From: a virus
DNA length: 41,356 nt
IMG/VR virus record: IMGVR_UViG_3300045988_077302
Span: 1 to 41,356 of that record
Reading direction: 5' to 3' (one strand)
Positions within the stretch are counted from its first letter, which is position 1, and each line of letters begins with the position of its first letter. Below, one piece after another: positions 14,836 to 38,856 of the stretch. The notes under the pieces were generated by a model, which did no database searches, was not told the DNA's origin, and was given only the letters and a program-made list of their open reading frames with translations. Both the position numbers and the translations under genes were made by a program.

Positions 14836-14862
14836 CAAACAACAGAATAATGATGTGACTGA

Positions 14863-18495: not shown

Positions 18496-18496
18496 C

Positions 18497-19252: not shown

Positions 19253-19300
19253 AATATATTCCTCCCGGTTTTATATATTTAAAAATTATTGTGTAAAACA

Positions 19301-19948
19301 TTATCTTAAAACATAATTTTGCAGTCGTTCAGGAAAATATCGTTCAAGAAATTCGTGATATTCTGCCCATGCAGAGTATTTTTCCTCTGGCTCAGATTCC
19401 AGTTCTATTTCATAGCCAAGCTCTTTTTCTGGAAAAAACATCAATTCCAATTGGTGTTCCGGTTCAGATGGTTTGTGCGTAGTATGAGCGATATGTTCAT
19501 ACCATCTTCTGTAATCCGACAAAGCTCTGTTTGATGCCTTATAGGATAATCCGAATAACTCATATATATGTCTGACTGTTCTACAATCATATTTATGAAT
19601 TAGTATTCTGGGAGCCAGAATATGGCTGGCAAACTCATTGGCCTCATCATCATTTTCTTTTGTATCCCCATTATGACTCAATAAAATGTGGCCCACTTCA
19701 TGCATTAGCGAAAAACGCTGACGGCGAATGTAAGGGAAAGAATCATTATAGTAGATTTTTCCTCTTAGCTTAAATGCATCATCACTTACTTTATAACATT
19801 CGCGCTCTTTTATTTCTGAAAGTTCAGAATACCTATATAGAGGTATCTTTAATTTTTTAATTACATCAATGCAATCAATAGGAAAATTTTTGATATTACA
19901 GGTTTCGTAGACATCTAAAATAATACGTGAAACCTCACAATGCTCCAA
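19301..19948 (-). CDS. immA: ImmA/IrrE-family zinc metallopeptidase (anti-repressor protease)
   Basis: 215 aa with a TTG start. It has the motif HEVGHILLSH followed by EANEFASHILAP, and lies directly downstream of the repressor gene. Confidence 0.85.
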   Translation of the reverse strand: MEHCEVSRIILDVYETCNIKNFPIDCIDVIKKLKIPLYRYSELSEIKERECYKVSDDAFKLRGKIYYNDSFPYIRRQRFSLMHEVGHILLSHNGDTKENDDEANEFASHILAPRILIHKYDCRTVRHIYELFGLSYKASNRALSDYRRWYEHIAHTTHKPSEPEHQLELMFFPEKELGYEIELESEPEEKYSAWAEYHEFLERYFPERLQNYVLR

Positions 19949-19962
19949 ACAAAATCACTCCT

Positions 19963-20292
19963 TTAATCATCATCGGATAACAAAGTTCTAATGATGTCCT
20001 GTTTTTGTTCGATCGTGAGTTTTTTTCCATTACGGGCAATAAGGCTTTGAATATCTTCATAGGTTGGCTCGTATACGGTTTGTGATGATCCTCTTGCCAT
20101 CTCGTCAAGTTCTTCAACTGTAATTCCTAATTCTTTACATATCGAAATTACGATATTAACACTTGCACCGCCAACACCTCTCTTTAATATCGAATAGAGT
20201 GTACTTTCGGATAAACCACATTTCTCTGCAAATGCCCGTTTACTCATTCCAGTCTCGGAAATTAGTTTTTCTAAAATTCTAGCTTTCTCCAT
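19963..20292 (-). CDS. XRE/CI-like phage repressor (ImmR-like)
   Basis: 109 aa. The HTH reads MSKRAFAEKCGLSESTLYSILKRG. It is divergent from the Cro-like gene. Confidence 0.85.
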   Translation of the reverse strand: MEKARILEKLISETGMSKRAFAEKCGLSESTLYSILKRGVGGASVNIVISICKELGITVEELDEMARGSSQTVYEPTYEDIQSLIARNGKKLTIEQKQDIIRTLLSDDD

Positions 20293-20395: not shown

Positions 20396-20409
20396 CGCGC
20401 AATTGCGCG
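20396..20409. promoter_or_regulatory. Operator: perfect 14-bp palindrome CGCGCAATTGCGCG
   Basis: Read directly. Related sites are GCGCAATTGC at 20461..20470 and TATACGCGCAAT at 20320..20331. Confidence 0.6.
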
Positions 20410-20418
20410 AAAAAGTTC

Positions 20419-20447
20419 TTGACAATACACGCGAATGAGCGTATATT
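20419..20447 (+). promoter_or_regulatory. Rightward early promoter
   Basis: TTGACA (20419..20424), a 17-nt spacer, then TATATT (20442..20447). It is flanked by operator palindromes. Confidence 0.7.
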
Positions 20448-20488
20448 ACAACTATGGTCAGCGCAATTGCACAAAAGGAGGTGATACA

Positions 20489-20704
20489 ATGTATAAAAAC
20501 CTTTTAGACACTATGTCTAATAAAAAAATTACATTTACGCAGATTTCAGAACTTCTTCATTGCCAACTAAGAACGGTATCGGAGAAAAGCAGGGGAGTGG
20601 TTCAAAGCGAGTTCACTGTTACTGAAGCGTTATTAATTAAGCGGGTCTTTTTCCCAGAGTATGATATTGACTGGTTATTTGAAAAAGAAGAATTAAGCAC
20701 CTAA
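20489..20704 (+). CDS. Cro-like HTH regulator
   Basis: 71 aa from ATG 20489 (RBS AAGGAGGTG). Contains ITFTQISELLHCQLRTVSEK. The track start at 20435 lacks an RBS. Confidence 0.75.
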   Translation: MYKNLLDTMSNKKITFTQISELLHCQLRTVSEKSRGVVQSEFTVTEALLIKRVFFPEYDIDWLFEKEELST

Positions 20705-20778
20705 TACAAACACACGTTCGATAAAACCAATATACCACTATCGAATATAAGTGTCAATGGGAAGATGAGGAAAGGAGC

Positions 20779-20907
20779 GTGGTCCACATAGGAGCAACAT
20801 GTAACACCTGCCGATACCGCAATCGCTGCTTGGAGCAGAGCAGGCGGTATCCATGTAAGGTCTATGCGCCTAAAAAGGCGGCAACAAGTACAACCAGTCA
20901 TACATAG
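20779..20907 (+). CDS. Small 4-Cys protein (42 aa)
   Basis: Not in the track. GTG start after GAGGAAAGGAG. Translation is MVHIGATCNTCRYRNRCLEQSRRYPCKVYAPKKAATSTTSHT. Confidence 0.4.
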   Translation: MVHIGATCNTCRYRNRCLEQSRRYPCKVYAPKKAATSTTSHT

Positions 20908-20933
20908 AATCTATCAGAGAGGGGTGGTGAGAA

Positions 20934-21083
20934 ATGAAAGATACTGTAGTTGCGCTTAACAGCGTTAATGTGGAACGGGCGTTTGAGGCTTTGGCCCGGA
21001 TATTCACGGCGCGGGGAGAATGTACAGTGACTGTTAAGTCTATTAAAAAGAAAGACGAGGTACAGAAAGATGAAACCGCTTAA
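20934..21083 (+). CDS. Hypothetical early protein (49 aa)
   Basis: Not in the track. ATG follows GAGGGGTGGTGA. Confidence 0.5.
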   Translation: MKDTVVALNSVNVERAFEALARIFTARGECTVTVKSIKKKDEVQKDETA

Positions 21084-21119
21084 TAGCGGTACTGATGGAC
21101 AAGCAGGAGGTGATACAGA

Positions 21120-21275
21120 ATGCAGAAGTACATTGACAACCTCGACGACTTCGAGGACGACAGCCGGCCGCCGCTAATCGATTGGGTGGAATGGCTGCTG
21201 GTTGGGATCTTTGATCTGGCCGGGGCGGTGGCCTGCGGGTACATAGGGTATCTGCTGTTGGTGAGATTGATTTGA
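21120..21275 (+). CDS. Small membrane protein (51 aa)
   Basis: Not in the track. ATG follows AGGAGGTG. It has an acidic N-terminus and one TM helix (WLLVGIFDLAGAVACGYIGYLLLV). Confidence 0.55.
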   Translation: MQKYIDNLDDFEDDSRPPLIDWVEWLLVGIFDLAGAVACGYIGYLLLVRLI

Positions 21276-21289
21276 GAGGAGGGAATCAG

Positions 21290-21505
21290 ATGCAGAAGGA
21301 AACAATTATGAAACAGTTGGAAAAACAAGCGCGGTATGCGCAGCGCTCCCTGTCGCGCGACCTGCTTTATCAGACATATGGACAAGCTTGTATGGCGCGT
21401 CAGCTGGAAGCAATAACGCGGGAGGAGTTTGCACAGATCAACCACATGACTGTCTATTTTATGAATACCCATGCAAGGGAACTGGAAGGAGAAGGTGAAG
21501 GATGA
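21290..21505 (+). CDS. Hypothetical early protein (71 aa)
   Basis: ATG 21290 follows GAGAGGAGGG. The track ORF was trimmed to this start. Confidence 0.55.
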   Translation: MQKETIMKQLEKQARYAQRSLSRDLLYQTYGQACMARQLEAITREEFAQINHMTVYFMNTHARELEGEGEG

Positions 21506-21831
21506 TGAAGAAACGATTAGAGAAGAAGATGGAGAAGCGGAAGCGTGAACAGATCCACCGGCTGCTAGATCTGGCGCTGGATATCAATGGACTGGAACCA
21601 AGAGAACAGAAAGTTACAGGGAATCTTCCAACAGTATTTTTTGACTTTTCTGGTCATGTTGGGCGGATAAGCATTCGGACATATTCTGCTGGCTGGACTC
21701 CCGGCAAAGATTCCGATACTGAAATATGGCCGCGCGCATACAAACTCAGTGAGCTTTCTGATGCGGTACGCCGCGTAAATACACTAAAAGCAGAATCCCC
21801 AGGAGCTGCAACTCCCAGGGATTCAAGGTAA
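21502..21831 (+). CDS. Hypothetical early protein (109 aa)
   Basis: ATGA overlap with the previous ORF. The N-terminus is basic. Confidence 0.55.
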   Translation: MMKKRLEKKMEKRKREQIHRLLDLALDINGLEPREQKVTGNLPTVFFDFSGHVGRISIRTYSAGWTPGKDSDTEIWPRAYKLSELSDAVRRVNTLKAESPGAATPRDSR

Positions 21832-21883
21832 CTACTAATTATTCTACAGCCCCATTGTACCATGGGGAGAAACGGAGTGCAAG

Positions 21884-22252
21884 ATGGTAAAAAAAGAATT
21901 AATGAAACGCGCAGAGGCCACGCTGGGAAGAGTCAACCGTTTAAATGACGGAATTGACTTGTGCGAGACGGCTACAAAGATACTTGCAGAGCAGCCGGCG
22001 ATTACTGTTAGCAGTAATTATGGTAGCATCGCACTGAATGATGAAGAGATCGGATTCAGCCAGGAGACTATGGCTGAGTGCGTGAAATGTATATCTGAAA
22101 AAATACTGGTGAGGCGGGATATGATGGCCGAGGCACTGATTGAGGTACTGGAGGCGATTGACGAGGCATTGCCGCCGGAGCCTGTGAACTGTAAACAGCC
22201 GGTACCGCAAAGACATTATGGGGCGATCAGCCCAGACGAAGTAGATTGGTAA
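21884..22252 (+). CDS. Hypothetical early protein (122 aa)
   Basis: ORF with plausible coding composition. No motif recognised. Confidence 0.55.
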   Translation: MVKKELMKRAEATLGRVNRLNDGIDLCETATKILAEQPAITVSSNYGSIALNDEEIGFSQETMAECVKCISEKILVRRDMMAEALIEVLEAIDEALPPEPVNCKQPVPQRHYGAISPDEVDW

Positions 22253-22265
22253 GGAGGATTACGAG

Positions 22266-22760
22266 ATGAGATTATACGAATTATCAGAGCAGTACGAGAT
22301 TTTGGAGCAGATGCTTTATGATGGCGAAACGGATGAGCAGACAATCCGAGATACCATGGAAGCTATTTTCGGGGAGTTCGAGGATAAGGCAGAATCCTAT
22401 GCGATTATTATTACTGGCATGAAAGCTGACATTGAGGCGTTAAAGTCGGAAGAATCCCGCCTGAATGCCCGGAGGACAAGTCTGGAAAACCGCCAGAAGG
22501 CTTTGAAGACAACGCTCATGGAGAACATGAAGGCTATAGGAAAGACGAAGATTAAGACACCCCTCTTTACGATCAGCGTGGCAAAGAACGGCGGTCAGGA
22601 ACCACTGGTCATTGACGGAGCCATTGACGATATCCCGGGCCGCTTCCTGATTCCGCAGCCACCGAAGGTAAACGGAGATGCGGTCCGCGCCTTATTATCC
22701 GAGCGCCAGGTAGACTGGGCGCATCTGGAACCGCGTGGGGAGCATCTGGGGATCCGCTGA
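22266..22760 (+). CDS. Siphovirus Gp157-like protein
   Basis: 164 aa. The N-terminus LYELSEQYEILEQML...DTMEAIFGEFEDKAE is followed by a coiled coil. It sits at the start of the replication module. Confidence 0.7.
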   Translation: MRLYELSEQYEILEQMLYDGETDEQTIRDTMEAIFGEFEDKAESYAIIITGMKADIEALKSEESRLNARRTSLENRQKALKTTLMENMKAIGKTKIKTPLFTISVAKNGGQEPLVIDGAIDDIPGRFLIPQPPKVNGDAVRALLSERQVDWAHLEPRGEHLGIR

Positions 22761-23026
22761 TGGGCGGCGGGGATATGACTCCGTTCCGTATGCAGGTATT
22801 GATGGATGTTGCAGCACGGGTTGTAAAACTCATGGTTACAGGCGTGTGGCATCTGTCTTTCGAGGAAATGGATATGGTACTTGCATTGGTACGGCACGGA
22901 ATAGATGAGAGCAATGAGAGAAACAGGAAAGGGGATTGTGAAGATGTTCTTAAAAACAGGAGAATTGAAGAAGATCATGAAGGCCAGTTTGAAGAAGCAC
23001 GGCCTGATCGTAGGGAATGTGAATGA
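22760..23026 (+). CDS. Possible small ORF (88 aa), 3' end uncertain
   Basis: TGATG coupling to the previous gene. It overlaps the next ORF by about 80 nt in another frame. Confidence 0.35.
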   Translation: MGGGDMTPFRMQVLMDVAARVVKLMVTGVWHLSFEEMDMVLALVRHGIDESNERNRKGDCEDVLKNRRIEEDHEGQFEEARPDRRECE

Positions 23027-23618
23027 CCATTATCTGGTTTATTCCGATAACTGGGGGCTGTATATTGAAATACCGTACGCATCGAATAAGTTCAAGGCTG
23101 CAATCATGGAGCTGATCGGAGATCTGCCGGAAGCAGGAGAATGCTATCTTTTTAAGATTAATCCAGATGGAGATACGGAACCGGAGACTGTATTCGATTA
23201 TCCGGATCCGTATGAGCAGTGGAAAGCAGCAAAAGATTTTGCCGTAGTGGCGCCGGTAATGCTGTTTGCCTGGCCTCATGAGTATATCGTATGCCAGAAG
23301 CACAGCGATTTGAGATTCGTGGTTGCGGATCGGTCCCTGTCAGACCGGGTGATATCGCGGAGCGAACTGGATACAACCGTGGAGGTGATGCCAACCAGGC
23401 CGAGTTTTCTTGCCGGCGTGCTCTATTGGAAGAATGAAACGACAATCTATTGGGTACATACGGAATCACCAGGGAATAAGGCACTGGAAGTGTTGTTTCC
23501 ACGTCTGAACGGCATCAGCTTTTTTGAGGATGACTGGATTGCGGATAATGCAGGTCAGGAAGATGAGGAACCGGCAGACGGGAGAGAGGAAGCAGCGGAA
23601 GATTCGCTGCCATATTAA
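22944..23618 (+). CDS. Hypothetical replication-module protein with an acidic SSB-like C-terminal tip
   Basis: 224 aa from ATG 22944 (alternative starts at 22905 and 22914). It ends ...EEPADGREEAAEDSLPY. Confidence 0.6.
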   Translation: MFLKTGELKKIMKASLKKHGLIVGNVNDHYLVYSDNWGLYIEIPYASNKFKAAIMELIGDLPEAGECYLFKINPDGDTEPETVFDYPDPYEQWKAAKDFAVVAPVMLFAWPHEYIVCQKHSDLRFVVADRSLSDRVISRSELDTTVEVMPTRPSFLAGVLYWKNETTIYWVHTESPGNKALEVLFPRLNGISFFEDDWIADNAGQEDEEPADGREEAAEDSLPY

Positions 23619-23628
23619 GGAGGAAGCC

Positions 23629-24288
23629 ATGGCAGTGCCAGTATTAATTATAGGCCGGAGCGGGGCCGGTAAAAGTGCAAGTATGAGAAATTGCGTGGGT
23701 AAGGATTTTGCCCTAATCAATGTCCTGAAAAAGCCGCTCCCATTTAAGGGGAAGATCCCGGCAGTCCAATCCGATGACTACAATAAGATTATGACAGCGC
23801 TTAAAGGCTGTCAGCAGAAATCAGTGGTAATTGACGATGCCGGATATCTTATTACGAATCAGTTCATGCGGGGCCACAGTAACGCTGGAAAAGGGAATGG
23901 CGTATTCTCCCTTTACAATGATCTGGGAGACCGGTTCTGGAGTCTGATTCAGTTCGTGGTAACTATGCGGGAAGACCAGATCGTGTACTTTATGATGCAC
24001 GAAGATAAGGACGACAGCGGCGATGTTAAACCGAAGACCATCGGGAAACTGCTGGATGAGAAAGTATGTGTGGAAGGAATGTTTACGATTGTGCTGCGGT
24101 GTGTGTTAGATGGCGAGGATCACCGGTTTATTACCCAGTCGGCAAATGGCGCGGTCAGTAAGTCTCCAATGGGGATGTTCCAGGCGCTTGAGATTGATAA
24201 CGATCTTTTAATGGTAGACAACACAATCAGAGAATATTACGGGATTCAGAACCCGAAGAACTTAGAGGAGGATAAGAAAAATGATTAA
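23629..24288 (+). CDS. P-loop ATPase (AAA_24/Sak4-like)
   Basis: 219 aa from ATG 23629 (RBS AAGGAGGAA). Walker A is GRSGAGKS and Walker B is VVIDDAG. Confidence 0.75.
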   Translation: MAVPVLIIGRSGAGKSASMRNCVGKDFALINVLKKPLPFKGKIPAVQSDDYNKIMTALKGCQQKSVVIDDAGYLITNQFMRGHSNAGKGNGVFSLYNDLGDRFWSLIQFVVTMREDQIVYFMMHEDKDDSGDVKPKTIGKLLDEKVCVEGMFTIVLRCVLDGEDHRFITQSANGAVSKSPMGMFQALEIDNDLLMVDNTIREYYGIQNPKNLEEDKKND

Positions 24289-24916
24289 GAAACCACAGGG
24301 ATATGATGAGGCGGCAGCTTATACGGGCGAATTTCAGGCCCTTCCAAAAGGAAAATATGTTTGTAAAATTCGTCAGGTTGCCGAAGTGACGGATACAGAT
24401 AAGAGCGGGCATGAGTGGAGAAAGTTTGTAATTCTGTACGATATTGCGGAAGGAGAGTATGCAGACTTTTATGATAAGCAGTTTAAAGCAGAAAAAGAAA
24501 CGAATCCAAAAGCCAAATGGAGAGGCGTCTTTAAACAGAACATGGATGATAAGGGAACGCCATGGCTTAAGGGTGTTGTTACTGCCATTGAGAGGTCTAA
24601 CAATTTCACTTTCCAGTGGGACAAGGAAGACAATGAGAAAACGCTTGTCAATAAAAAATTCGGTGGTATTTTCCGCCGCCGTCAGTACGAAAAGGATAAT
24701 GGAGAGCGCGCAATGACAACGGAGCTGTGGCGGATCCGCAGCGTGGCAGGCCTGGCAGAAGCGGAAGTGCCGGAAGATGAACTGCTTCCAGTAACAGGAC
24801 CGGGAGGCGGCAGGCCAAATCCGGCAGATGCCGCGGCACCCCCTTCTTTTACAGACAGTGACGGTTTTATGAATATCCCAGAAGGAACCGGAGATGAAGG
24901 GATCCCTTTCATGTAA
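24281..24916 (+). CDS. DUF669-like putative ssDNA-binding protein
   Basis: 211 aa. It follows the ATPase as in Sfi21-type modules, and ends in an acidic tip ...GTGDEGIPFM. Confidence 0.6.
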   Translation: MIKKPQGYDEAAAYTGEFQALPKGKYVCKIRQVAEVTDTDKSGHEWRKFVILYDIAEGEYADFYDKQFKAEKETNPKAKWRGVFKQNMDDKGTPWLKGVVTAIERSNNFTFQWDKEDNEKTLVNKKFGGIFRRRQYEKDNGERAMTTELWRIRSVAGLAEAEVPEDELLPVTGPGGGRPNPADAAAPPSFTDSDGFMNIPEGTGDEGIPFM

Positions 24917-25124
24917 GGCCAGAAGTTCCGTTATTAATCCCAGGGTATCGTTCAGGACTCATCCGGAGAGGGTTTCCGGATCCGGATGAGTTTGATATGC
25001 GTCTGATTGATAATTCCGACATAGGAAGCCTGCAGGGCGGAATCCATTGTGCTGATGATATAGGACAGAGCGGCTGGATGTTTGCAATGGAGGGACTTCT
25101 CGGTCATACGAGGTTTGAAGATTA

Positions 25125-25736
25125 ATGATAATGAAAGGTTATAATCCGGATCTGTTCCGGAAGGTAAAGGAAGCGGTCTCCATGCAGCAGGTGGCGGAGT
25201 ATTATGGCCTGCAGCTTAATCGGAAGGGGCTGTGTCAGTGCCCCTTCCATCAGGATAAGAATCCGAGCCTTAAAATATATCCGGACGGAAAGGGATTTTA
25301 CTGCTTTACGTGTGGAACTGGTGGTGACCAAATCAAGTTTGTAGCGTTGTACCATGATACGAGTAACTATGAAGCCGCAAAAGAACTGGCTGCCGCTTTT
25401 GATATTCCCCTGGCTGAGCCGATGACATACAGGGAGAAGCGGGAAGCGGAGCTGGTGCGCCGGCACAGAGCGGCGGTTGCTGCATTTAAAAAGCGGTCAA
25501 CATTATACGTCAAAATGTACTGGATCCTGCTGTGTGAGGCAATCCATGAGAGAAATGAGCATTTTACGGAAGCGCTGCAGAACATCACGTATATTGAATA
25601 TTTGTTAGAAAATATAGAAGAATGTCCGGAAGAGGTCTACGAAGACAAGAAGGCGGTGAGAAGGATTGGGGACATCGAAAGACGAATTACTGACTGGTAT
25701 ATCCGCATTAAAGCCGACGGAACCATTTCCAGATGA
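25125..25736 (+). CDS. CHC2 (DnaG-type) zinc-finger protein
   Basis: 203 aa. Contains CQCPFHQDKNPSLKIYPDGKGFYCFTCGTGGD. No Toprim or primase catalytic motifs were seen. Confidence 0.8.
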   Translation: MIMKGYNPDLFRKVKEAVSMQQVAEYYGLQLNRKGLCQCPFHQDKNPSLKIYPDGKGFYCFTCGTGGDQIKFVALYHDTSNYEAAKELAAAFDIPLAEPMTYREKREAELVRRHRAAVAAFKKRSTLYVKMYWILLCEAIHERNEHFTEALQNITYIEYLLENIEECPEEVYEDKKAVRRIGDIERRITDWYIRIKADGTISR

Positions 25737-27558
25737 GATTTTTTATGAAATTTTTGAGATAGAGGACAATATCGAGCGGACCCAATATATAGAATCCCTT
25801 CGTAACACCGCGCGGCAGCTTAAAAGGGTAACGGAATTTAACAATCTTTATAAGTCATTTGTGCTTGATTATGCACAGCGTCAGAAGCAGACCGGGAATA
25901 AAACAAAATTCACCGATCAACCACTGGAATTAGTATGCGGCGAGTGGACTGCGAATGATTTCGGAGTGAGGACGATCCGATATGACAAGAATGCCATGCC
26001 GGTGCCATATCAGGCGTGTAGTCATCCGATCCTGCCTGTAGAGATCCTGAAGAACGTAGATACGGCGGAGGAGCGGATCACGCTGGCGTATTTTAAATCA
26101 GCTGCCTGGCAGACCATTACCGTAGACCGGAGCGTCTGTGCAAATACAAATAAGATCGTAGATGCGCTGAGCCAGTTTGGCATTGAGGTTACGTCGGACA
26201 ATGCAAAAAATATGGTCCGTTACATATCGGACTGCGTGGGGCTGAATCCATTAACACTGAATCCTAAAAAATCCATTAATCGTCTGGGCTGGGTGGGGAA
26301 TTCCTTTACCCCGTATGCAGATGATATCCGGTATGAGGGGGATATGGATTATGAGGCAATTTTCAGGAATGTAAAAGAGGCTGGCAGTTTTGAGACCTGG
26401 CTGAATCTTTGTACCGATCTTCGGAAAAATATCCCTCTTCGTATGATGATGGCGGCCAGTTTCGCCTCTGTGCTTCTGGAGCCGTTGAAAGTCCTGCCTT
26501 TTGTTTTGCATGTATGGGGCACGACTGGGACCTGCAAGACCGTGGCTCTTATGGTGTCTATGAGCATCTGGGGCAACCCGAAGATGGGCGGCCTGGTTAA
26601 GACCATGAACATGACGCGCAATGCCATTATGCGGAATGCAGCCTTTCTGTGCAGTATCCCATTCGCCGGTGATGAGCTGCAGACGATCAAAGACAAGTGG
26701 CAGGGAAACTTTGACCAGCTGATCTACCAGATAACAGAAGGAGTGGACCGGGGACGGGCGCGGGCCTATGGCGGAGTAGAGGAAACCAGGACCTGGAAAA
26801 ACAGTTTTCTGTTTACCGGAGAGGAGCCGGTTACAAAAGCAAACTCCGGAGGCGGAAGCAAGAACCGCGTTATAGAGATCGCGATTGACGGACCGCTGGT
26901 GGAGGACGGGCACTATGTCAGCAGCATTGTTCAGGAAAACTATGGATTTGCCGGCCGGAAACTGGTTGAATACATTCAGGAAGCGGAAGAGGGGGCACTT
27001 ACAGAGAGATACCGGGAGCTGTTTGAACAACTATGCCATCTGGATACGACTGACAAGCAGGCGATGGCAATGGCCTGTATTCTACTGGCTGATGAACTGG
27101 CGGCAGAGTTGTTCTTCCCAAAGGAGCAGCCATTGGGGATCCGGCAGGTAAGCCAATACCTGCAGAGCGCACTGGAAGTTGATGTCGCTGAACGCGCTTA
27201 CCAGTCCGTGCTTAACTGGGCAGCAAAGAATCCGGTGAGATTTGAGGATCCTAAAGCAGACAATTCCCCTAATAAAGGGGAGGTATGGGGGAAGATTGAT
27301 GGAGAAATTCTGATTTTAAACCGGGATGTGCTGCTTGGTTATCTGGAACAGAATGGATTTGATTATACCGCGGTCAGCAGGAAGTGGAATGATAAAGGGT
27401 ATTTGAAAAAGACGCCTCAAAGTAAGTTTATACACAATACAAAAGTTTATGGAATTAAGTCCAGTTATATCAAACTTATCCTGCCGCAGGACGATGATAA
27501 TACAGATCGAGATGGATTTATAGTGTCTGATGGACAAGAAACACTGCCGTTTGATTAG
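25666..27558 (+). CDS. DUF927/SF3-like replicative helicase / initiator
   Basis: 630 aa. P-loop is VWGTTGTCKT and the Walker B-like motif is PFAGDELQ. It has only a TTG start and overlaps the CHC2 ORF by 71 nt. Confidence 0.7.
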   Translation: MGTSKDELLTGISALKPTEPFPDEIFYEIFEIEDNIERTQYIESLRNTARQLKRVTEFNNLYKSFVLDYAQRQKQTGNKTKFTDQPLELVCGEWTANDFGVRTIRYDKNAMPVPYQACSHPILPVEILKNVDTAEERITLAYFKSAAWQTITVDRSVCANTNKIVDALSQFGIEVTSDNAKNMVRYISDCVGLNPLTLNPKKSINRLGWVGNSFTPYADDIRYEGDMDYEAIFRNVKEAGSFETWLNLCTDLRKNIPLRMMMAASFASVLLEPLKVLPFVLHVWGTTGTCKTVALMVSMSIWGNPKMGGLVKTMNMTRNAIMRNAAFLCSIPFAGDELQTIKDKWQGNFDQLIYQITEGVDRGRARAYGGVEETRTWKNSFLFTGEEPVTKANSGGGSKNRVIEIAIDGPLVEDGHYVSSIVQENYGFAGRKLVEYIQEAEEGALTERYRELFEQLCHLDTTDKQAMAMACILLADELAAELFFPKEQPLGIRQVSQYLQSALEVDVAERAYQSVLNWAAKNPVRFEDPKADNSPNKGEVWGKIDGEILILNRDVLLGYLEQNGFDYTAVSRKWNDKGYLKKTPQSKFIHNTKVYGIKSSYIKLILPQDDDNTDRDGFIVSDGQETLPFD

Positions 27559-27566
27559 TGGAGAGG

Positions 27567-27855
27567 GGTCCAACCATAAAATTTTAGGTTGGACCATAGG
27601 TTGGACCATGAAACCCGCATAAAATAAGGCTTTTTAATATAGAGTCCAACCAGTCCAACTAGTCCAACCAGTTTTATATATCTCGTGACGCGAGAAAAAA
27701 GTTTGTAGAAAATTTAACACATATAGTTTGCTCTAAAAATATATAGATATGCAACCGGATTTTAGGTTGGACGGTTGGACCATACGTAAAATCAAGGGGT
27801 TGCGGATACTTATCGGAACAAAACCTGGTTGGACGGACCAGAAAAATGGTTGGAC
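27567..27855. repeat. Origin of replication: 10 iterons of GGTTGGAC in both orientations flanking an AT-rich core
   Basis: GTCCAACC at 27568, 27644 and 27662, with the variant GTCCAACT at 27653. GGTTGGAC at 27587, 27599, 27765, 27773, 27827 and 27848. The AT-rich core is 27670..27755. Confidence 0.8.
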
Positions 27856-27878
27856 TGGGGAGAATAAGGAGGATAATT

Positions 27879-28091
27879 TTGATCAAAAAATTGGAAATGC
27901 TGGGCTTCCTTCTGGAAGATGCCGACAATGAGGCGAAGAAGATAAACGAATTCAAAGATGCGCTGGAATCCGGAGATGAAAAGCGATTATGGAACGCGGA
28001 GAGGCCGAACCGCCAGAGGATAAAAGACGATTTAAAGATGATGCGCCGGCTGTCCATTGAGGTAGAGAAGGAGGCAGAAAAGCTATGGTAA
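27879..28091 (+). CDS. Hypothetical coiled-coil protein (about 70 aa)
   Basis: TTG start 6 nt after AAGGAGG (alternative ATG at 27897). Confidence 0.5.
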   Translation: MIKKLEMLGFLLEDADNEAKKINEFKDALESGDEKRLWNAERPNRQRIKDDLKMMRRLSIEVEKEAEKLW

Positions 28092-28516
28092 GTAATAAAA
28101 CGGCAGGCTCCAGGTTCGAAAAGGAGTTTGCGGGGATCCTGGCGGATCACTGGTTCTGGGTTCATCTCTTCCAGGATAACAAAAATGGCCAGCCCTGTGA
28201 TGTAATTGCGGTGAAGAATGGCCGGGCCTATCTAATCGACTGTAAGGACTGCCAGTCAGAGATATTTCCTCTCAGCCGGATCGAGGAAAACCAGATCAAT
28301 GCAATGATCCTGTTCAGCATGATGGGGAATGTCCCCGGAATGTTCGCAATCCGGTTCCCTGATCGCCAGATATATCTCCTGCAGTACACGAAGCTGCGGG
28401 AACTGCAGGAAGCTGGTTTTAAACGGATCAATGAAACAGTATGCAGAACCCAGGGAATGCCCCTGGAGCAATGGCTGGAATGGAGTGACAGAGATGCAGG
28501 TGATAATCGGGAGTGA
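28085..28516 (+). CDS. PD-(D/E)xK Holliday junction resolvase (Hjc/RecU-like)
   Basis: 143 aa. Contains GSRFEKEF and CDVIAVKNGRAYLIDCKD. Confidence 0.65.
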   Translation: MVSNKTAGSRFEKEFAGILADHWFWVHLFQDNKNGQPCDVIAVKNGRAYLIDCKDCQSEIFPLSRIEENQINAMILFSMMGNVPGMFAIRFPDRQIYLLQYTKLRELQEAGFKRINETVCRTQGMPLEQWLEWSDRDAGDNRE

Positions 28517-29876
28517 GATCAGGATTAAGGACGCCCCAAAGATCTTGCAGAACTGGTGTGGTGAGAATCTGGTGATCCCGAATCCAGAGTATGCGAACCG
28601 GGCCCGCCGGGGATTATGGACAGGTAACACGCCGCAGCATCTATGGCTGTATTGGGTTGATGGCAGCGATCTGGTGTTACCGGTTGGAGTCGGAAAAGAG
28701 ATAAGGGCACTGCTCCCTGCTGAGTGTGAATACATCACCGATCTGGCTGACAATGGAGAGCTGCAGTATGCCGGGAATATTTCACTGTATGATTACCAGA
28801 CGCCGGCAGTGGAGGCAATGTGGAAAGCAAGCTGCGGAATCCTGCAGAGCCCGTGTGGCTCCGGTAAGACACAGATGGGAATTGCTCTGGCGGCTTCCCT
28901 TGGGCGGAAGACGCTCTGGATTACACACACTCAGGATCTGTTGAAACAATCTTATGACCGGGCGGCCCAGTACTTCCTCCGGGAGACTCTGGGGACCATT
29001 ACGGCTGGTAAGGTCAGTATAGGAAGCCATATAACCTTTGCCACAGTACAGACGCTTTGTAAGCTGGATCTGGCTCAGTACAGGTACATGTGGGACGTTA
29101 TAATCGTAGATGAGTGCCATCGGCTGGCCGGAACACCGACGCAGATGACAATGTTCTATAAGGTCATGAACAGCCTGGCGGCGCGGCATAAGTATGGACT
29201 GTCAGCTACGGTACATCGGTCTGACGGCCTGATCCGCAGTACCTTCGCAGTATTAGGACCGGTAATCTACCGGGTGCCGGACGAGGCGGTAGCAGACAAG
29301 ACCATGCAGGTTAGGATCCTGAAGAGAGATACTGACATCGTTACTGCGCGGGAATGCCTGGACACGGATGGGACGCTGGAGTACAGCAGGCTGATGCAGT
29401 ATCTGACTGGAAAACGGGACCGAAGCCAGCTGATCGTGGAGGATCTGGTACATAACCAGAAACACTATAACCTGATATTGTCGGACCGGTTGGAGCATCT
29501 CAGGACATTGATGCAGATGCTGCCGGAGGAATGCCGGGAAACAGCAGTAATGATTGATGGCAGCATGACGAGTAAAAAGGACCGGTGCGCCAGGGAACGG
29601 GCGATCGAGGATATGCGGTCAGGGAAGAAGCATTACCTGTTTGCCAGTTACAGTCTGGCGAAGGAAGGACTTGATATCCCGCGTCTGGACCGGCTGTACA
29701 TGACAACACCGAAGAAAGACTATGCAGTGGTAACACAGAGTGTCGGCCGGATTGCGAGGGTGGCAGACGGGAAGAAAGATGCAGTCTGTTATGACTATGT
29801 TGACGATATCCAGTTCTGCGAGAACCAGTGGAAGCGGCGCCGGGCACATTACAGAAAGGCAGGGTGCAGATTATGA
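28494..29876 (+). CDS. Superfamily 2 DEAD/DEAH-box helicase
   Basis: 460 aa from ATG 28494. Motifs seen are CGSGKTQ, IIVDECHR, GLSAT and QSVGRIAR. Confidence 0.85.
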   Translation: MQVIIGSEIRIKDAPKILQNWCGENLVIPNPEYANRARRGLWTGNTPQHLWLYWVDGSDLVLPVGVGKEIRALLPAECEYITDLADNGELQYAGNISLYDYQTPAVEAMWKASCGILQSPCGSGKTQMGIALAASLGRKTLWITHTQDLLKQSYDRAAQYFLRETLGTITAGKVSIGSHITFATVQTLCKLDLAQYRYMWDVIIVDECHRLAGTPTQMTMFYKVMNSLAARHKYGLSATVHRSDGLIRSTFAVLGPVIYRVPDEAVADKTMQVRILKRDTDIVTARECLDTDGTLEYSRLMQYLTGKRDRSQLIVEDLVHNQKHYNLILSDRLEHLRTLMQMLPEECRETAVMIDGSMTSKKDRCARERAIEDMRSGKKHYLFASYSLAKEGLDIPRLDRLYMTTPKKDYAVVTQSVGRIARVADGKKDAVCYDYVDDIQFCENQWKRRRAHYRKAGCRL

Positions 29877-30091
29877 GCAAGCGGGATGAAGAACGCGCGG
29901 CGATGGTAAAAGGCGTCTTCTGCGAAGCATATAAGTTTTACTTAAAATACCATAGCCGGCCAATGGAGCCGGGAATGTGGCAGGAGGCTACAGATGATTT
30001 CGCTGCGATCATGAAGAGGTGTGGTGCCACTTCTATATGTGGACGGATTATGCTTGCAACGTTTTCGCAGCTGGAAGAAGAGAAAAGATAG
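29873..30091 (+). CDS. Hypothetical protein (72 aa)
   Basis: ATGA overlap with the helicase stop codon. Confidence 0.55.
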   Translation: MSKRDEERAAMVKGVFCEAYKFYLKYHSRPMEPGMWQEATDDFAAIMKRCGATSICGRIMLATFSQLEEEKR

Positions 30092-30103
30092 GGGAAAAAG
30101 ATT

Positions 30104-30352
30104 ATGGCAGTTAAGAATACACTGACAGATTTGAATAATCACCTGTTTGCCGAGATGGAACGGCTGGGAGATGAGGAATTAAAAGGTGAAGAACTGGACA
30201 AGGAAATAGAACGGGCGAAGGCGATCACCTGTGTTGCATCGCAGATCATAGCAAACGGGTCCCTGGCATTAAGGGCAGAACAGTTTAAGAGCGATGTGAT
30301 TTCAGCAAAGGAAGCACAGGTTCCAGCTTTTTTGGAGGCGAGAAGTGATTGA
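30104..30352 (+). CDS. Hypothetical protein (82 aa)
   Basis: ORF with an upstream purine-rich RBS. Confidence 0.55.
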   Translation: MAVKNTLTDLNNHLFAEMERLGDEELKGEELDKEIERAKAITCVASQIIANGSLALRAEQFKSDVISAKEAQVPAFLEARSD

Positions 30353-30894
30353 GAAGAGAATACAAGGACGACGAGATCGCCTTCCTGAAGGAGATTTCGC
30401 CTGGAAAGACATATGCAGCAATAGCAGATGCGTTTAATGCCAGGTTCAGGGATAGAGATTATGTAATGCCCCGTCAGGTGAAGGATGCTATGAAATATCG
30501 GAAGATTCCATATAGTGGGAATTCAGAAACTGTAGCCCGCCATGTGCCTGTTGGTTCGGTGGAGGTATTACTGTACGGAACAAATAAAAATGGAGAACGG
30601 TATAAATATGAAATGGTGAAAGTAGCAGAGCCAAATGTCTGGAAAAGGAAAAGCCTGTTGGAATGGGAGAAACATCACGGTCCGCTTCCGGAAGGGAAAA
30701 TGATTATATTTCTGGATGGCAACACGCTAAACTCAGATATTGAAAATCTTTATGCAGTCAGTACGAGAGTACATTTCCGGCTCAATAAATATAGAGTTAT
30801 GAAACCGAATCGGGAATATATGCTGGCTGCCATTAAGATAGCCGAGATTGAGGATTCTATAAATCAGCTTAAGAAGAAAAGGAAAAATAGATAA
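30349..30894 (+). CDS. HNH_3-like endonuclease homologue with a degenerate motif
   Basis: 181 aa with a TTG start. Contains WEKHHGPLPEGKMIIFLDGNTLNSDIENLYAV, where Phe/Leu occupy the position of the first catalytic His. Confidence 0.55.
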   Translation: MRREYKDDEIAFLKEISPGKTYAAIADAFNARFRDRDYVMPRQVKDAMKYRKIPYSGNSETVARHVPVGSVEVLLYGTNKNGERYKYEMVKVAEPNVWKRKSLLEWEKHHGPLPEGKMIIFLDGNTLNSDIENLYAVSTRVHFRLNKYRVMKPNREYMLAAIKIAEIEDSINQLKKKRKNR

Positions 30895-30947
30895 AAATAA
30901 GCAGAGTGTTATATTGTCTAATTTAAAGTTTTCGGAAGGAGACAGCA

Positions 30948-31130
30948 ATGACGGTAAGGGAATTAATCGAACTGCTGAAAAAAGCGCCGCCAGACGATAT
31001 TGTCCTGGCAGATATAGGGCAGGAAGAAAGTGCAGATATATCGGGGATGTTGACAGCATCTGATGTGTTAATAGGGAACGGGACAATCCGGGGGATAACA
31101 TACCTGAAAATAGAACCATACGAAACTTAG
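30948..31130 (+). CDS. Hypothetical protein (60 aa)
   Basis: RBS GGAAGGAG. Confidence 0.55.
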   Translation: MTVRELIELLKKAPPDDIVLADIGQEESADISGMLTASDVLIGNGTIRGITYLKIEPYET

Positions 31131-31147
31131 GATTTAGGAGAGCAGAT

Positions 31148-31438
31148 ATGGATAACATATTCCAAAGTGATATAGTTAAAAACGCAAACGAAGAATTAAA
31201 AGCAATAAGTGATAGTTTGTCCGTTCATAGCGTGGGCGGTTCAGAAGGAAAAATATATAGCCTATCAACATCAATACCGCTAAAGGGTAACAAAGATATT
31301 ATTCATTCTTTAGAGAAGCTTGGTTGGGAAAAGACTAGAAGATTCAAAGTTAAGACGGACGGGAACTGGACTAGGAATCAATACGATGGATATGAAATGC
31401 ATCAAGGTATGGCAAAGTATTTTAGGCAACTAAACTGA
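31148..31438 (+). CDS. Hypothetical protein (96 aa)
   Basis: RBS AGGAGAG. The DNA is AT-rich. Confidence 0.55.
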   Translation: MDNIFQSDIVKNANEELKAISDSLSVHSVGGSEGKIYSLSTSIPLKGNKDIIHSLEKLGWEKTRRFKVKTDGNWTRNQYDGYEMHQGMAKYFRQLN

Positions 31439-31466
31439 TATTTCCCGAACGAAAGGAGGCGGTTTA

Positions 31467-31637
31467 TTGAGCCTTAAGGAAGAGATGGCGAAGCACAGGA
31501 AATATGAGGACCTATTAAAAGATCAGTCACCTGAAAGAACGTGGTCCATGGACAAGCCAGCCTACTGCTACACACCGGCGTGTCCGGATCCAAAGTTACG
31601 GGCGCCGATCTGGAGGAGGAACAAACATGGCATTTAG
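31467..31637 (+). CDS. Hypothetical protein (56 aa)
   Basis: Not in the track. TTG start 7 nt after AAAGGAGG (alternative ATG at 31485). It is preferred over the overlapping track ORF 31541..31723. Confidence 0.45.
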   Translation: MSLKEEMAKHRKYEDLLKDQSPERTWSMDKPAYCYTPACPDPKLRAPIWRRNKHGI

Positions 31638-31893
31638 CAAAACATATGCAGTATATGATCGCGGTGTCCTGCTGGGTCAGTACTATGCTGATGAGGTATC
31701 GGAACTTATCGGGATTCCACTGAGAAGAGTTTCGGCCTATGCGGCCAGCGGGGCCAGATTCTTAAGGCGGTATACGATTGAGGCAGTGGACGATACTGAG
31801 CCAGGGTGGGCCGAGGAGTGGGATCGGGTAAGGCTTGAGAAACTGGCATGGTTAAGAGGAGGTGGAGCCAGTGGAGCAAAACAGTCCGGCTAA
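31627..31893 (+). CDS. Hypothetical protein (88 aa)
   Basis: RBS GGAGGAGGAA. Confidence 0.55.
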   Translation: MAFSKTYAVYDRGVLLGQYYADEVSELIGIPLRRVSAYAASGARFLRRYTIEAVDDTEPGWAEEWDRVRLEKLAWLRGGGASGAKQSG

Positions 31894-32245
31894 AGAACTG
31901 GAGAATTTTTTGAATTTCATAGACCAATGTGTCCAGGAATACAAGGCAGCTTATGAAAATGTGAACGAAGAGGACCGGCGTCTGCAAGATCTGGTTCATG
32001 CAATGGAATTTGCAGCGGATAAGTCTGAGCGGAACCGGGTAGCGACGAAGCTTCAGCAGAGTCGGAAATACCGCAGGCAGAACAAAGATATTGTCAAGCG
32101 AAATGAGCGGATTGTAAAGTTCTTTGAGGAGCAGAAGAACCGGGACACGCTGAATCGGATGCGGCAGCTTCTGGGCCAGCAGAGGAAGGAAGAAGAGTAC
32201 CTGGATGGGGAACGTGCGTACAAGCCGCGGGTAGGGAAGGGGTGA
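31862..32245 (+). CDS. Hypothetical basic coiled-coil protein (127 aa)
   Basis: GTG start that overlaps the previous gene. Confidence 0.5.
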   Translation: MEPVEQNSPAKELENFLNFIDQCVQEYKAAYENVNEEDRRLQDLVHAMEFAADKSERNRVATKLQQSRKYRRQNKDIVKRNERIVKFFEEQKNRDTLNRMRQLLGQQRKEEEYLDGERAYKPRVGKG

Positions 32246-32718
32246 GGCCGTTGGACAAAGAGGTACTGGAACAATACTCAGACAGACTTGCGAGGGTAAG
32301 ACTGATACAGGAGCACCGGGAAAAGAAACAGAGGCGCCTGAACAAGCTAAATGAGAAGGGATATACCGTAGCTGATTCGGTAGCTTGCGGCAGAAAAGGG
32401 AGAAAGCCTTTACAGACGGTAAAAATATTCGGAACTCCTTACTCGGAAATCAGTAAAGTAAAAGCAGAGCTGAAAAAGCAGGATTTTATTCTGGCACGAG
32501 AGGAGCAGGCACTTTTAGAAGACACAACGAGGGTGGAGGAGTACATATCTGGGATTGCTGATGCTGAGATCAGAAACCTATTGACATTGTATTACGTGGA
32601 AGATCTGAACTGGGTACAGGTTGCACACAGAATGAATTATCTGTACCCAAAGAGAAAAGGGAGTTATACGGCGGATAGTTGCAGATGTAAACATGACAGA
32701 TTTTTAGAAAAAGTTTAA
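32242..32718 (+). CDS. Sigma-70 region-4-like HTH protein, candidate late-gene regulator
   Basis: 158 aa. Contains AEIRNLLTLYYVEDLNWVQVAHRMN. It is the last gene before the packaging module, the position typical of RinA/ArpU-type activators. Confidence 0.55.
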   Translation: MRPLDKEVLEQYSDRLARVRLIQEHREKKQRRLNKLNEKGYTVADSVACGRKGRKPLQTVKIFGTPYSEISKVKAELKKQDFILAREEQALLEDTTRVEEYISGIADAEIRNLLTLYYVEDLNWVQVAHRMNYLYPKRKGSYTADSCRCKHDRFLEKV

Positions 32719-32861
32719 AACGACGGTTCCGACGGTTTTTCTGTGATACACTTTAAACTGGAAGATCTGAAAAACGGATTTCCTCCCCCAATTGACGGCC
32801 GCCGGCTTTTACCGGTCGGTGGCTGATTTATCCTTCATAATTCATGTTTTCTCCCTAAGAA

Positions 32862-32891
32862 GCACCTGTCGAAAGATGGGTGTTTTCTTTT
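32862..32891 (+). terminator. Intrinsic terminator 30 nt upstream of terS
   Basis: The stem 32862..32870 pairs with 32875..32883 (9 bp including 3 GU pairs), closing a GAAA tetraloop, followed by TTTCTTTT. Confidence 0.6.
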
Positions 32892-32920
32892 ACCCAAAAA
32901 CAGAAAGGAAGTGAGTCTGA

Positions 32921-33430
32921 ATGACTCAGAAACAGAAAAGATTCATAGAAGAGTACCTGATCGACTTAAATGCCACTCAGGCCGCTATCCGTGCCGGGTA
33001 CAGTCCTGATACGGCACAGCAAACTGGAAGTGAAAACCTGTCAAAACCTGTTATTCGTGCACAAATAGACCGCGCGATGGCCGAACGCTCCAAGCGCACT
33101 GGCGTCAATGCTGAACGGGTGGTTCAGGAACTGGCGAAGATTGCCTTCGTGAACGCTGCAGAGGTGATCGACCCAAAGACCGCAACGGTTAAGGAGGATG
33201 CTCTTCCGGAGGATACAGCGGCGATCCAGTCGGTGAAGGTTAAGACCTTCGGTGAGGACGGCCTGGAGCGTGAGATTAAAATGGCCGATAAGCTTAAAGC
33301 CTTGGAGCTCTTGGGGAAGCACCTGGGAATGTTCAAGGATAGGATTGAATTATCCGGCGGCCTCGATACTGAAAAGAGTAAGCTGGACGACCTGATCGGA
33401 CAGATGAGAGGTGGTGATGCTACCTCATGA
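32921..33430 (+). CDS. terS: Terminase small subunit (Terminase_2 type)
   Basis: 169 aa. Contains QKRFIEEYLIDLNATQAAIRAGYSPDTAQQTGSENLSKP. Confidence 0.9.
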   Translation: MTQKQKRFIEEYLIDLNATQAAIRAGYSPDTAQQTGSENLSKPVIRAQIDRAMAERSKRTGVNAERVVQELAKIAFVNAAEVIDPKTATVKEDALPEDTAAIQSVKVKTFGEDGLEREIKMADKLKALELLGKHLGMFKDRIELSGGLDTEKSKLDDLIGQMRGGDATS

Positions 33431-34796
33431 GTTCTGAACGATTACTTTTGTCAGAGAAGTATAAAGCGTTTCTTAGGTGTGATGCACCCGTCGAATTTCT
33501 TGAGGGTACTTAACCACCTATGCAGGTAAGACAACAGTCGGTCTATTTAAGTTCATGCTCAAGGTGGCTGAGAGTCCGAAGAAGCTGCACATCATCGCGG
33601 CCAAAGACACCGGCACCGCCGAGAAGAACATCATCAACAAGGATCTGGGAATTATAGACGATTTCGGGATCCTGGCCGAGTACAACGGCAACGGATCCAA
33701 AGACGATAAGATCCCGCATATCCTCTTCCACACGTCCGGCGGTGACAAGGTCATTTATGTAATGGGCTACGGTGATAAGACGAAATGGCAGAAGGCCCTC
33801 GGCGGCCAGTACGGCTGTCTGTACATCGATGAGATTAACACGGCAGACATTGAGTTTATCCGTGAAGCGTCCATGCGTTGCGATTACATGATGGCGACGC
33901 TTAACCCCGATGATCCGGGGCTGGACGTCTACAAGGAGTATATCAACTGCTCCCGGCCGCTGCCCGAATGGGAGGAAGAGACTCCGCAGGAAATTAGAGA
34001 GGAATTGAGAGAGGAACCGAAACCCGGCTGGGTGCATTGGTTCTTTTCTTTTGCTCACAACTTAGGTCTGAGTAAGGAGAAACTGGATCAGATCATGACT
34101 AACACGCCGAAGGGAACGAAGATCTGGAAGAATAAGATTCAGGGCCTGCGGGGCAGGGCAACCGGGCTGATCTTCCCGAACTTCGAGCGGTCTAAGCATG
34201 TGGTCACGGTTGCCTGGGTGAAGGCACAGGTCGCAGCTGGTAAGATTAAATTTAAGAAGTTTTCGGCCGGCCTGGATACGTCCTACTCAAGCAAGTCCCC
34301 TGACACCATCGCCATGATCTTCCAGGGGACTACCATGGACCGGCGCGTGATCGTGCTGGATGAGAAGGTATACAGTAATGCGGACCTATCGCAGCCGCTG
34401 GCGCCATCGGATACGGTGGGTAAGTTCCTGGACTTCCTGGAGCACAACCGGAAGGCATGGGGGCTTGCCAGGGACGTATTTATCGATTGTGCGGATCAGG
34501 CGACAATCATGGAGCTTAAGAAGTGGAAGCGCCTTCATGGTAGCCTGTACACATTTAACGACAGCTATAAGAAAGTTGAGATTCTGGACCGTATTAAGTT
34601 TATGCTGGGCTGGATCCAGCAGGGCTGTTACCTGGTTGTAGATACGTGCAGAGAGCACCTGGGAGAACTGGACCGGTACAGTTGGCAGGAAGATAAGGAT
34701 CTCCCCGAGGACCGTAACGATCATACGATTAATGCATCACAGTATGGCTGGATCCCATATAGAGGACTTATAGGATTTGAGGAGGCAGAGAAATGA
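33427..34796 (+). CDS. terL: Terminase large subunit, reading frame broken by a -1 shift at 33504..33510
   Basis: ATG 33427 (ATGA-coupled to terS) gives 28 aa ending ...VEFLEGT at a stop. The Walker A motif YAGKTTVG and the other 431 codons lie in the -1 frame, which is open from 33504. The track ORF 33555..34796 lacks the Walker A. Confidence 0.8.
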
Positions 34797-38441: not shown

Positions 38442-38765
38442 ATGGATGATTTTCGTTTGATTTATAAAATCCTTCGCATCCTGCAAAAATCAATGGACTG
38501 TGAGGAAATTGATGCTGACATTTTGTCTCCGGAAAGGCTTGAATTGTCGGTACCGAAATGGAGTCGTATAATGGCGATGTTGTTGAAAGAAGGATACATC
38601 ACAGGGGGAGAGACATGGAATGCTATGGACTGCGGATACCCCAGAGTGTCATTAACAAGACCAGAGATTACTTTAAAAGGTCTTGAGTATCTGGAAGAAA
38701 ATACCCTGATGAAGAAAGCGGCAAGCCTTGCAAAAGGAATAAAGGATACAATACCGGGTTTATAA
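38442..38765 (+). CDS. YjcQ-like winged-helix protein
   Basis: 107 aa from ATG 38442 (RBS GGAAGAGGAG; the track start is 38418). Contains FRLIYKILRIL, WSRIMAMLLKEGYI and TLKGLEYLEENTLMKKA. Confidence 0.6.
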   Translation: MDDFRLIYKILRILQKSMDCEEIDADILSPERLELSVPKWSRIMAMLLKEGYITGGETWNAMDCGYPRVSLTRPEITLKGLEYLEENTLMKKAASLAKGIKDTIPGL

Positions 38766-38796
38766 CCACCAGTCAGTAAATGGCCGGTGGTATTTT

Positions 38797-38812
38797 ATTG
38801 CGATATCGCAAT
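38797..38812. promoter_or_regulatory. Perfect 16-bp palindrome ATTGCGATATCGCAAT
   Basis: Read directly. It shares the 14-bp core TTGCGATATCGCAA with 14005..14018. Confidence 0.5.
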
Positions 38813-38822
38813 AGAATTGATT

Positions 38823-38856
38823 TAACACGCAGGATTACCCTGGGTGTTATTTTTAT
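38823..38856 (+). terminator. Intrinsic terminator upstream of the scaffold/capsid genes
   Basis: TAACACGCAGG pairs with CCTGGGTGTTA (11 bp with 1 mismatch) around a 5-nt loop, followed by TTTTT. A weaker hairpin (ACCACC/GGTGGT plus TTTT) lies at 38765..38796. Confidence 0.55.

Follow-up and report, generated by a model that had tools for sequence, protein, structure and literature searches.

A conserved predicted terminator between an Ltr-type late promoter and terS in a temperate Lachnospiraceae siphophage suggests possible regulated read-through of late transcription

Ltr regulators govern packaging and lysis in a very large share of the temperate phages of Firmicutes, among them phages that mobilise pathogenicity islands and transduce genes. 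Members of this superfamily are needed for terS transcription and bind direct repeats distal to their own gene, and activation depends on these repeats (Quiles-Puchalt 2013, PMC3753634). RinA requires sequences more than 155 bp upstream of a 5' end that was mapped to 23 nt ahead of terS, the interval from rinA to terS contains a terminator, and the authors hold the mechanism to be more complex than simple or direct activation (Ferrer 2011, PMC3152322). For the Ltr protein of phi13, the mapped start site adjoins the repeats, and terminators are unmentioned in that paper (2026, PMC13123087). Published Ltr work thus far treats these proteins as activators only, puts the start site of 80alpha and phi11 downstream of the terminator, and discusses neither read-through nor internal terminators. 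Our search for literature on RinA or ArpU together with antitermination found nothing relevant, and the published Ltr papers are silent on antitermination. In the 80alpha rinA-terS gap (L137, 1422-1607), we observed TGGCAGT twice after rinA, followed by a TAAAAT box, a leader of ~95 nt, a strong terminator (GGGTTGGCTGATTATAGCCAATCC plus T6) and terS, an order that matches the one in the phage described here. The published 5' end of 80alpha lies ~20 nt past this terminator.

Here we describe a late region that resembles both the Ltr systems and the Q/PR'/tR' system of lambda. With the Ltr late regions (RinA of phi11/80alpha, ArpU, LtrA/Sigma70_r4, LtrB/DUF1492 and LtrC), in which the genes for packaging, morphogenesis and lysis are all considered to depend on one promoter, it shares a protein of probable DUF1492/sigma-4-like kind, a regulator gene that is the last before terS, repeats after its stop codon, and a terminator between regulator and terS. 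With lambda, it shares a regulator gene directly upstream of the late promoter, a DNA site for the regulator in that promoter (predicted here), a terminator shortly downstream and ahead of the first late gene, and further terminators, including moron ones, within a long operon on one strand. Its regulator, however, resembles no Q family in sequence or fold, and PR' is constitutive whereas Ltr promoters need protein for initiation.

The analysed DNA, a stretch of 41,356 nt (the window), carries its first 85 bases again at its 3' end, and its IMG/VR entry is rated complete, with direct terminal repeats. These ends therefore describe a circular genome of 41,271 bp (41.3 kb), that of a temperate gut siphophage of Lachnospiraceae. 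A search of the GenBank phage collection for near relatives matched terS fragments only. The plus strand holds all genes from 20435 across the circular junction to 15612, which bears out the single-strand gene run described in the initial annotation, with the run starting at 20435. The early operon (20435-32718) spans ~12 kb and the late operon ~24 kb, the latter in the order terS, terL, portal, MuF-type minor head, YjcQ island, scaffold, capsid, tail genes, holin, endolysin and Bro-N. Gene identities were assigned with Pfam and PHROGs, and included an r1t-type holin; the genes needed for what follows are:

16930-20292, minus strand: serine integrase and XRE-type repressor
32242-32718, plus strand: late regulator gene (phrog_36 transcriptional regulator, E 3e-8)
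32921-33430, plus strand: terS, the first late gene (PF03592 Terminase_2, E 1e-45)
ATG at 38961, plus strand: scaffold gene (phrog_2303)
ATG at 14086, plus strand: Amidase_2 endolysin gene
14914-15612, plus strand: Bro-N gene (PF02498)

A gap of 125 nt separates terS from the called terL ORF (33430-33555); terminase models match only the C-terminal half of terL, and its N-terminal part may lie upstream in another frame. The intergenic region between repressor and cro (20396-20441) carries a 14-bp perfect palindrome, CGCGCAATTGCGCG, that differs from the palindrome of the late operon and probably serves the lysogeny switch as an operator.

The regulator gene is the last before terS (32921) and closes the replication/early module. 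Its product had been regarded as only a positional candidate for the antiterminator, but it is more than that: HMM matches of its homologues, its predicted fold, and repeats that vary with the protein place it among the Ltr proteins (RinA, ArpU, LtrA-C), and we assign it as a probable late regulator of the DUF1492/sigma-region-4-like kind. Homologues precede terS, HNH or moron genes in 134 loci, and were found in prophages of Lacrimispora, Enterocloster, Hungatella, Roseburia, Blautia and other Lachnospiraceae. PF07374 (DUF1492) was matched by 18 of 32 homologues and Sigma70_r4 by seven of the 32. The window protein itself had no Pfam match at E<=10, and so none to known antiterminator families, and matched TIGR02937 weakly (E 0.013). 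In this it differs from the described Ltr late regions, since it falls below every Pfam threshold; its promoter differs too, with only two repeats, located at -35 beside an extended -10.

An AF2 model of the regulator (mean pLDDT 89) consists of two long antiparallel helices forming a prefoldin-like coiled coil, a beta-hairpin that joins them, and a C-terminal three-helix HTH. Foldseek comparison with BFVD viral models returned DUF1492, Sigma70_r4 and ECF-sigma proteins at TM 0.6-0.7. Against the PDB it returned prefoldin-like coiled coils and the sigma-4 domain of SigD (rmsd 2.3 A over 62 aa, E 1.9), with no Q-like structure among the matches. No sequence match to a Q protein was found in Pfam, NCBIfam or the PDB; sequence-profile matches to PDB entries, including TFIIS at E 0.14, were at chance level only and were discarded. 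The beta-hairpin carries the most conserved motif of the family, ADSVxCGxKGKKPLGT, which is basic. In the model, this hairpin (residues 38-66) sits at the tip of the coiled coil, distant from the HTH, and may serve as a contact surface for RNA polymerase or as a dimer interface.

The DNA between the regulator and terS, 32719-32920, is the predicted late control region. Its elements, all on the plus strand, are as follows:

32721-32728 and 32730-32737, plus strand: two direct repeats, CGACGGTT, the first base lying 3 nt past the regulator stop codon
32744-32752, plus strand: extended -10, TGATACACT, with its hexamer at 32747-32752, in a conserved column pattern
32754-32759, plus strand: second -10-like hexamer, TAAACT, conserved, 1-2 nt past the -10
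32760-32783, plus strand: leader hairpin P1, read from the sequence
32782-32789, plus strand: C-rich tract, CCTCCCCC, likewise read
32796-32825, plus strand: leader hairpin P2, whose 12-bp stem has a poor T tail, then TGATT (dG -21.7, z -3.9)
32836-32859, plus strand: pre-terminator module, comprising the -10-like CATAAT (32836-32841) and a U/C-rich stretch, GTTTTCTCCCTAAG (32846-32859)
32861-32884, plus strand: predicted terminator tL, a 10-bp stem with a GAAA loop and three G.U pairs, followed by TTCTTTT, the T-run ending at 32891

The two copies of CGACGGTT after the regulator gene are the only exact copies in the window. We compared the DNA 3' of the regulator gene across 134 related loci, and observed a fixed design in which two direct repeats of 7-8 nt, with a period of 9-10 bp, begin a few bases past the stop codon and are followed after 6-9 bases by a TGnTAnnnT extended -10. 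Of 135 loci, 112 had this layout of repeats and extended -10. In a set of 76 non-redundant promoters, conservation was highest at the TG, the TA and the final T, and a relative with a 99% identical regulator has TAGAAT at the position of the -10 hexamer. The repeats fall into classes by protein clade (GGCGGTT, GACGGTT, CACGGTT, GTCCGC, GTTCGC, GTCGGG and GTCACG), a shift with the protein that is expected of a cognate binding site. Published Ltr sites are also direct repeats, lying just past the ends of ltr genes (PMC3753634). The CGACGGTT repeats are therefore predicted to be Ltr binding sites that fill the -35 region. The initial annotation had reported no good sigma-A promoter in 32719-32861; there is one, which lacks a -35 box and has instead the conserved extended -10 and the two repeats. 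Its spacing would place the late start site near 32760, ~100 nt before the terminator. TAAACT sits around this predicted start, at about -5 to +1, rather than at +1 to +6 or beyond, and this second -10-like hexamer is all that the region offers in comparison with the sigma-dependent, promoter-proximal pause element of lambda.

The leader downstream of this predicted start is ~130 nt long and structured, with tL at its end, 30 nt from the terS ATG (32921). The tL hairpin folds with a dG of -15.5 kcal/mol (z -4.4), a value that 0 of 200 shuffles equalled. Between tL and terS, we found no -10/-35 or Ltr-type motif in the sequence. To determine whether such a terminator is common, we scored leaders for a sense-strand hairpin plus U-run with dG <= -10 within 300 nt of the predicted start. 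A strong terminator was present in 72 of 90 non-redundant relatives, whereas the reverse strand gave 23 and shuffles gave 14-22 of the 90; in the other ~20% of related leaders, the first gene comes directly. A stem base of the form GCAYC ... GGGTGY with a U.G wobble was common to many of these leader terminators. A near relative, L057, shares the promoter, P1 and P2 with the window and has a different hairpin sequence at the terminator position. Another, L056, has the same regulator and an unrelated leader of 430 nt, yet a CATAAT-TTCTCC-hairpin module closes that leader before the first gene. The module order xATAAT ... TTCTCC ... hairpin also recurs in distant leaders such as L003, L008, L030 and L073. 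As judged from these comparisons, a predicted terminator of the tL type proximal to terS is a conserved feature of the related phages.

Two properties of the pre-terminator module were considered and set aside. CATAAT at 32836 was rejected as a real promoter, as its transcript would meet tL 20 nt on. Leader-peptide attenuation was also rejected: the ATG at 32844, which encodes MFSP and whose frame stops 2 nt short of the terminator stem, lacks an SD and shows no conservation in L003, L056, L057 and L001.

Since the repeats begin 3 nt past the regulator stop codon, a terminator for early and middle transcripts must lie downstream of the late promoter, and late transcripts meet it too. This constraint also suits an insulator reading, in which tL stops read-in from early and middle transcription, a strong late promoter with a natural read-through of 10-30% suffices, the internal terminators tune dosage, and no antitermination factor exists. 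The absence of a leader terminator from ~20% of relatives fits that proposal, as do the stems of the predicted terminators, with two to three G.U pairs, weak pairs at the bottom and interrupted U-tracts that could make them leaky and so count against antitermination. Retention of the terminator position where its sequence has been replaced, as in L057, argues the other way, and together with the internal terminators described below it leads us to consider this explanation unlikely, though one to be taken seriously.

The leader RNA itself could also be the agent. The put RNA of HK022 and the Bacillus EAR RNA, like this leader, have structured hairpins within the first ~70 nt and upstream of terminators. 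An RNA of this kind, composed here of P1, the C-rich linker and P2, would act in cis on polymerase to give processive antitermination, with the Ltr protein only activating initiation. The two hairpins do come right after the predicted start site and upstream of the terminators. Small 5' hairpins of the P1 type with GNRA-type loops were enriched in leaders (36 of 90, compared to ~6 in shuffles), as was the C-rich motif (34 of 90, compared to ~11). Across 18 diverse leaders, 97.5% of P2 cells were paired and five pairs were changed on both sides, values that 0 of 500 shuffles reached. These compensatory changes and conserved G.U pairs extend across Ltr subfamilies with different repeats, and conservation of the G.U pairs indicates that the structure acts at the RNA level, on the plus strand.

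However, the P2 search matched only 18 of 90 non-redundant leaders, and P2 is missing from many leaders that have a terminator; it is therefore not a general antitermination element. The leader bears no sequence similarity to put or EAR, a search of Rfam at gathering and permissive thresholds gave nothing above threshold, and the nearest relative with the same regulator, L056, has the wholly different leader noted above. RNA-based antitermination consequently seems improbable to us. We looked among the leaders for a conserved alternative pairing that would open the terminator and found none. A riboswitch-like switch between the C-rich tract or P2 arms and the tL arms was rejected, as matches were of only 4-6 nt, occurred in few loci and were inconsistent.

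A further proposal draws on the tRNA genes found between late promoter and terminator in ~25 of 55 related leaders. The segment from promoter to tL could be a stand-alone small RNA or tRNA-type unit, with internal hairpins protecting processed 3' ends and termination being incidental. Consistent with this, the late transcripts of 80alpha and phi11 are visible only as processed pieces of 2-4 kb (PMC3152322), and the CU-rich pre-terminator motif plus hairpin weakly resembles the anti-SD sRNA mmgR (E 0.2, below threshold). Polymerase would nevertheless have to cross the hairpin and U-tract to reach terS 30 nt on, so that this proposal adds a product while the read-through problem stays, and we give it little credence. 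The leader tRNAs are of Trp, Ile, Met, Arg, Gly, Val, Glu and Ala types, in loci including L018, L030, L038, L051, L061, L065, L075, L082, L094 and L097. tRNA-like 3' halves that ARAGORN did not call likewise occur inside late leaders.

tL is not the only predicted terminator that late transcription would encounter. A strict scan identified five canonical intergenic terminators on the sense strand of the late operon, whereas the early operon (20435-32718) had none. Folding energies at the five sites range from -13 to -18 kcal/mol, the 8-9 nt that follow each hairpin contain 5-8 U, and the sites would be expected from their sequence to act as terminators. A generic consensus scan of the window gave an overall terminator count not above that of its shuffles; the case for significance thus comes from position, folding z-scores and, most of all, conservation in relatives. 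Apart from tL, the sites and the elements around them are:

38765-38791, T-run to 38799, plus strand: first scaffold-side predicted terminator (dG -14.7, z -3.0)
38798-38811: 14-bp perfect palindrome, TTGCGATATCGCAA, between the twin terminators
38823-38849, T-run to 38856, plus strand: second scaffold-side predicted terminator (dG -14.9, z -3.4), 105 nt from the scaffold gene
14005-14074, plus strand: cassette at the holin-endolysin junction, with palindromes at 14005-14018 and 14022-14035, then terminator and RBS
14042-14067, T-run to 14074, plus strand: predicted endolysin terminator with a GAGA loop, then TTTCTTT (dG -17.5, centroid), 12 nt from the endolysin gene
14862-14887, T-run to 14890, plus strand: predicted post-endolysin terminator with a GGAA loop (dG -16.5, z -3.4), ~23 nt from Bro-N

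All the hairpins listed in the initial annotation were recovered within 1-2 nt or less of where it had put them, with computed folding energies far better than those of shuffles. The design it had noticed in three of them was confirmed as well, namely GNRA loops (GAAA, GAGA and GGAA) with two to three G.U pairs. Each G.U pair would be A.C on the opposite strand; the hairpins are therefore plus-sense RNA structures. Nor did we find anything promoter-like between any of these terminators and the next gene, and the scaffold and endolysin sites, like tL, are followed by no -10/-35 or Ltr-type motif, in agreement with the earlier observation that the hairpins leave no space for a new promoter.

Morons of temperate phages, according to work of Juhala et al. 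in 2000, are reportedly inserts of promoter, gene and terminator in late operons. In the window, an AT-rich YjcQ island (GC 0.39) between the minor head and scaffold genes precedes the twin terminators and shares with morons the possession of its own terminators. The order before the scaffold gene in relatives is terminator, palindrome, RBS, small gene and second terminator. This small gene is missing from the window and from L193 while the twin terminators remain, so the twin-terminator site looks like a moron remnant. The first scaffold-side hairpin is also kept before the scaffold gene of G003. At the other end of the operon, the cassette of TTGCGATATCGCAA, a second palindrome and a terminator stands ahead of a variety of endolysin genes, in no fewer than 17 distinct phage contexts, and in the relative G001 the terminator at the holin-endolysin junction is kept and the palindromes are missing. 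We conclude that the internal terminators probably arrived with mobile cassettes, and that late transcription must still pass them; the comparison with morons explains their origin and not how they are passed.

The palindrome TTGCGATATCGCAA (with its partner palindrome, at window positions 14005-14018, 14022-14035 and 38798-38811; loci L149-L257) turns up across many IMG/VR phages, in two fixed settings. One places it between a terminator and the RBS of a small gene (MKYRKKPVVIEAFQW...). The other couples it to a second palindrome, TTGTGACGTCACAA or TTGTAATATCACAA, with a terminator and an endolysin gene next. Symmetric changes at the palindrome centre suggest a DNA site for a dimeric protein. 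The 14-bp palindromes were rejected as sigma-A promoters or nut-like hairpins, given the wrong spacing to any -10 and those symmetric changes.

As parts of mobile cassettes, the internal terminators may be tolerated rather than required, which again favours leaky read-through in the absence of a factor. Against this, four serial terminators lie before the endolysin gene, two of them directly before the scaffold and capsid genes that need the highest expression, and leaky read-through across such a series would compound to a very low level. The complete relatives G001 and G003 also have a leader terminator and several intergenic sense-strand terminators in their late operons, and so repeat the pattern of the window. 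The initial annotation had proposed that late expression requires an antiterminator. That proposal is supported insofar as plus-strand terminators stand between the only recognisable late promoter and their genes, with the terS-proximal one conserved, and is weakened insofar as the internal ones are partly cassette baggage. A need for termination-resistant late transcription is thus probable, and has not been described for regulators of the Ltr class.

From the anatomy of the region, its conservation and the family of the protein, we infer the following series of events. The Ltr-type regulator, through its sigma-4-like HTH, would bind the two CGACGGTT repeats that replace the -35 box, host sigma-A would read the extended -10, and with the regulator in place late transcription would begin near 32760. 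The leader would then fold into P1, the C-rich linker and P2, followed by the intrinsic terminator 30 nt before terS, and late transcripts would later meet four more terminators ahead of the endolysin and Bro genes. Polymerase that starts at the late promoter may become terminator-resistant, as at lambda PR'-tR', while other polymerases stop; the modifying factor would most likely be the Ltr protein, with the leader RNA as second candidate. Regulated read-through is the best reading of these data in our analysis, with leaky terminators as a possibility. We put at about 0.5 the probability that antitermination here depends on a factor, most likely the Ltr protein, and is specific to the late promoter. 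More tentatively, and at well short of even odds, Ltr-type regulators in general may load onto RNA polymerase at repeat-bearing promoters and confer resistance to intrinsic terminators over more than 20 kb, as a Gram-positive analogue of lambda Q with an unrelated fold.

If polymerase from Ltr late promoters routinely has to cross terminators, the accepted 'simple activator' model falls short, and a mechanism of processive antitermination in Gram-positive phages awaits description. Antitermination by Ltr proteins would also account for a RinA site more than 155 bp upstream of the mapped 5' end in phi11 and 80alpha. The window is a compact test case: its control region spans 200 bp, the operator consists of two repeats, the extended -10 is clear, and the leader is short and holds a single terminator. 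More than 100 natural variants are available for comparison. For prophage annotation, terminators within late operons do not mark operon ends, and these findings also bear on the design of phage-based expression or packaging systems.

An additional sense-strand hairpin, AGGACGCCAGGTGTCAGGGCGTCTT, followed by TTTT, was observed at 2227-2251, within a short ORF (2142-2303) that is flanked by the tape measure gene and a putative tail chaperone gene. This hairpin may be a further internal terminator or a structure of a frameshift region.
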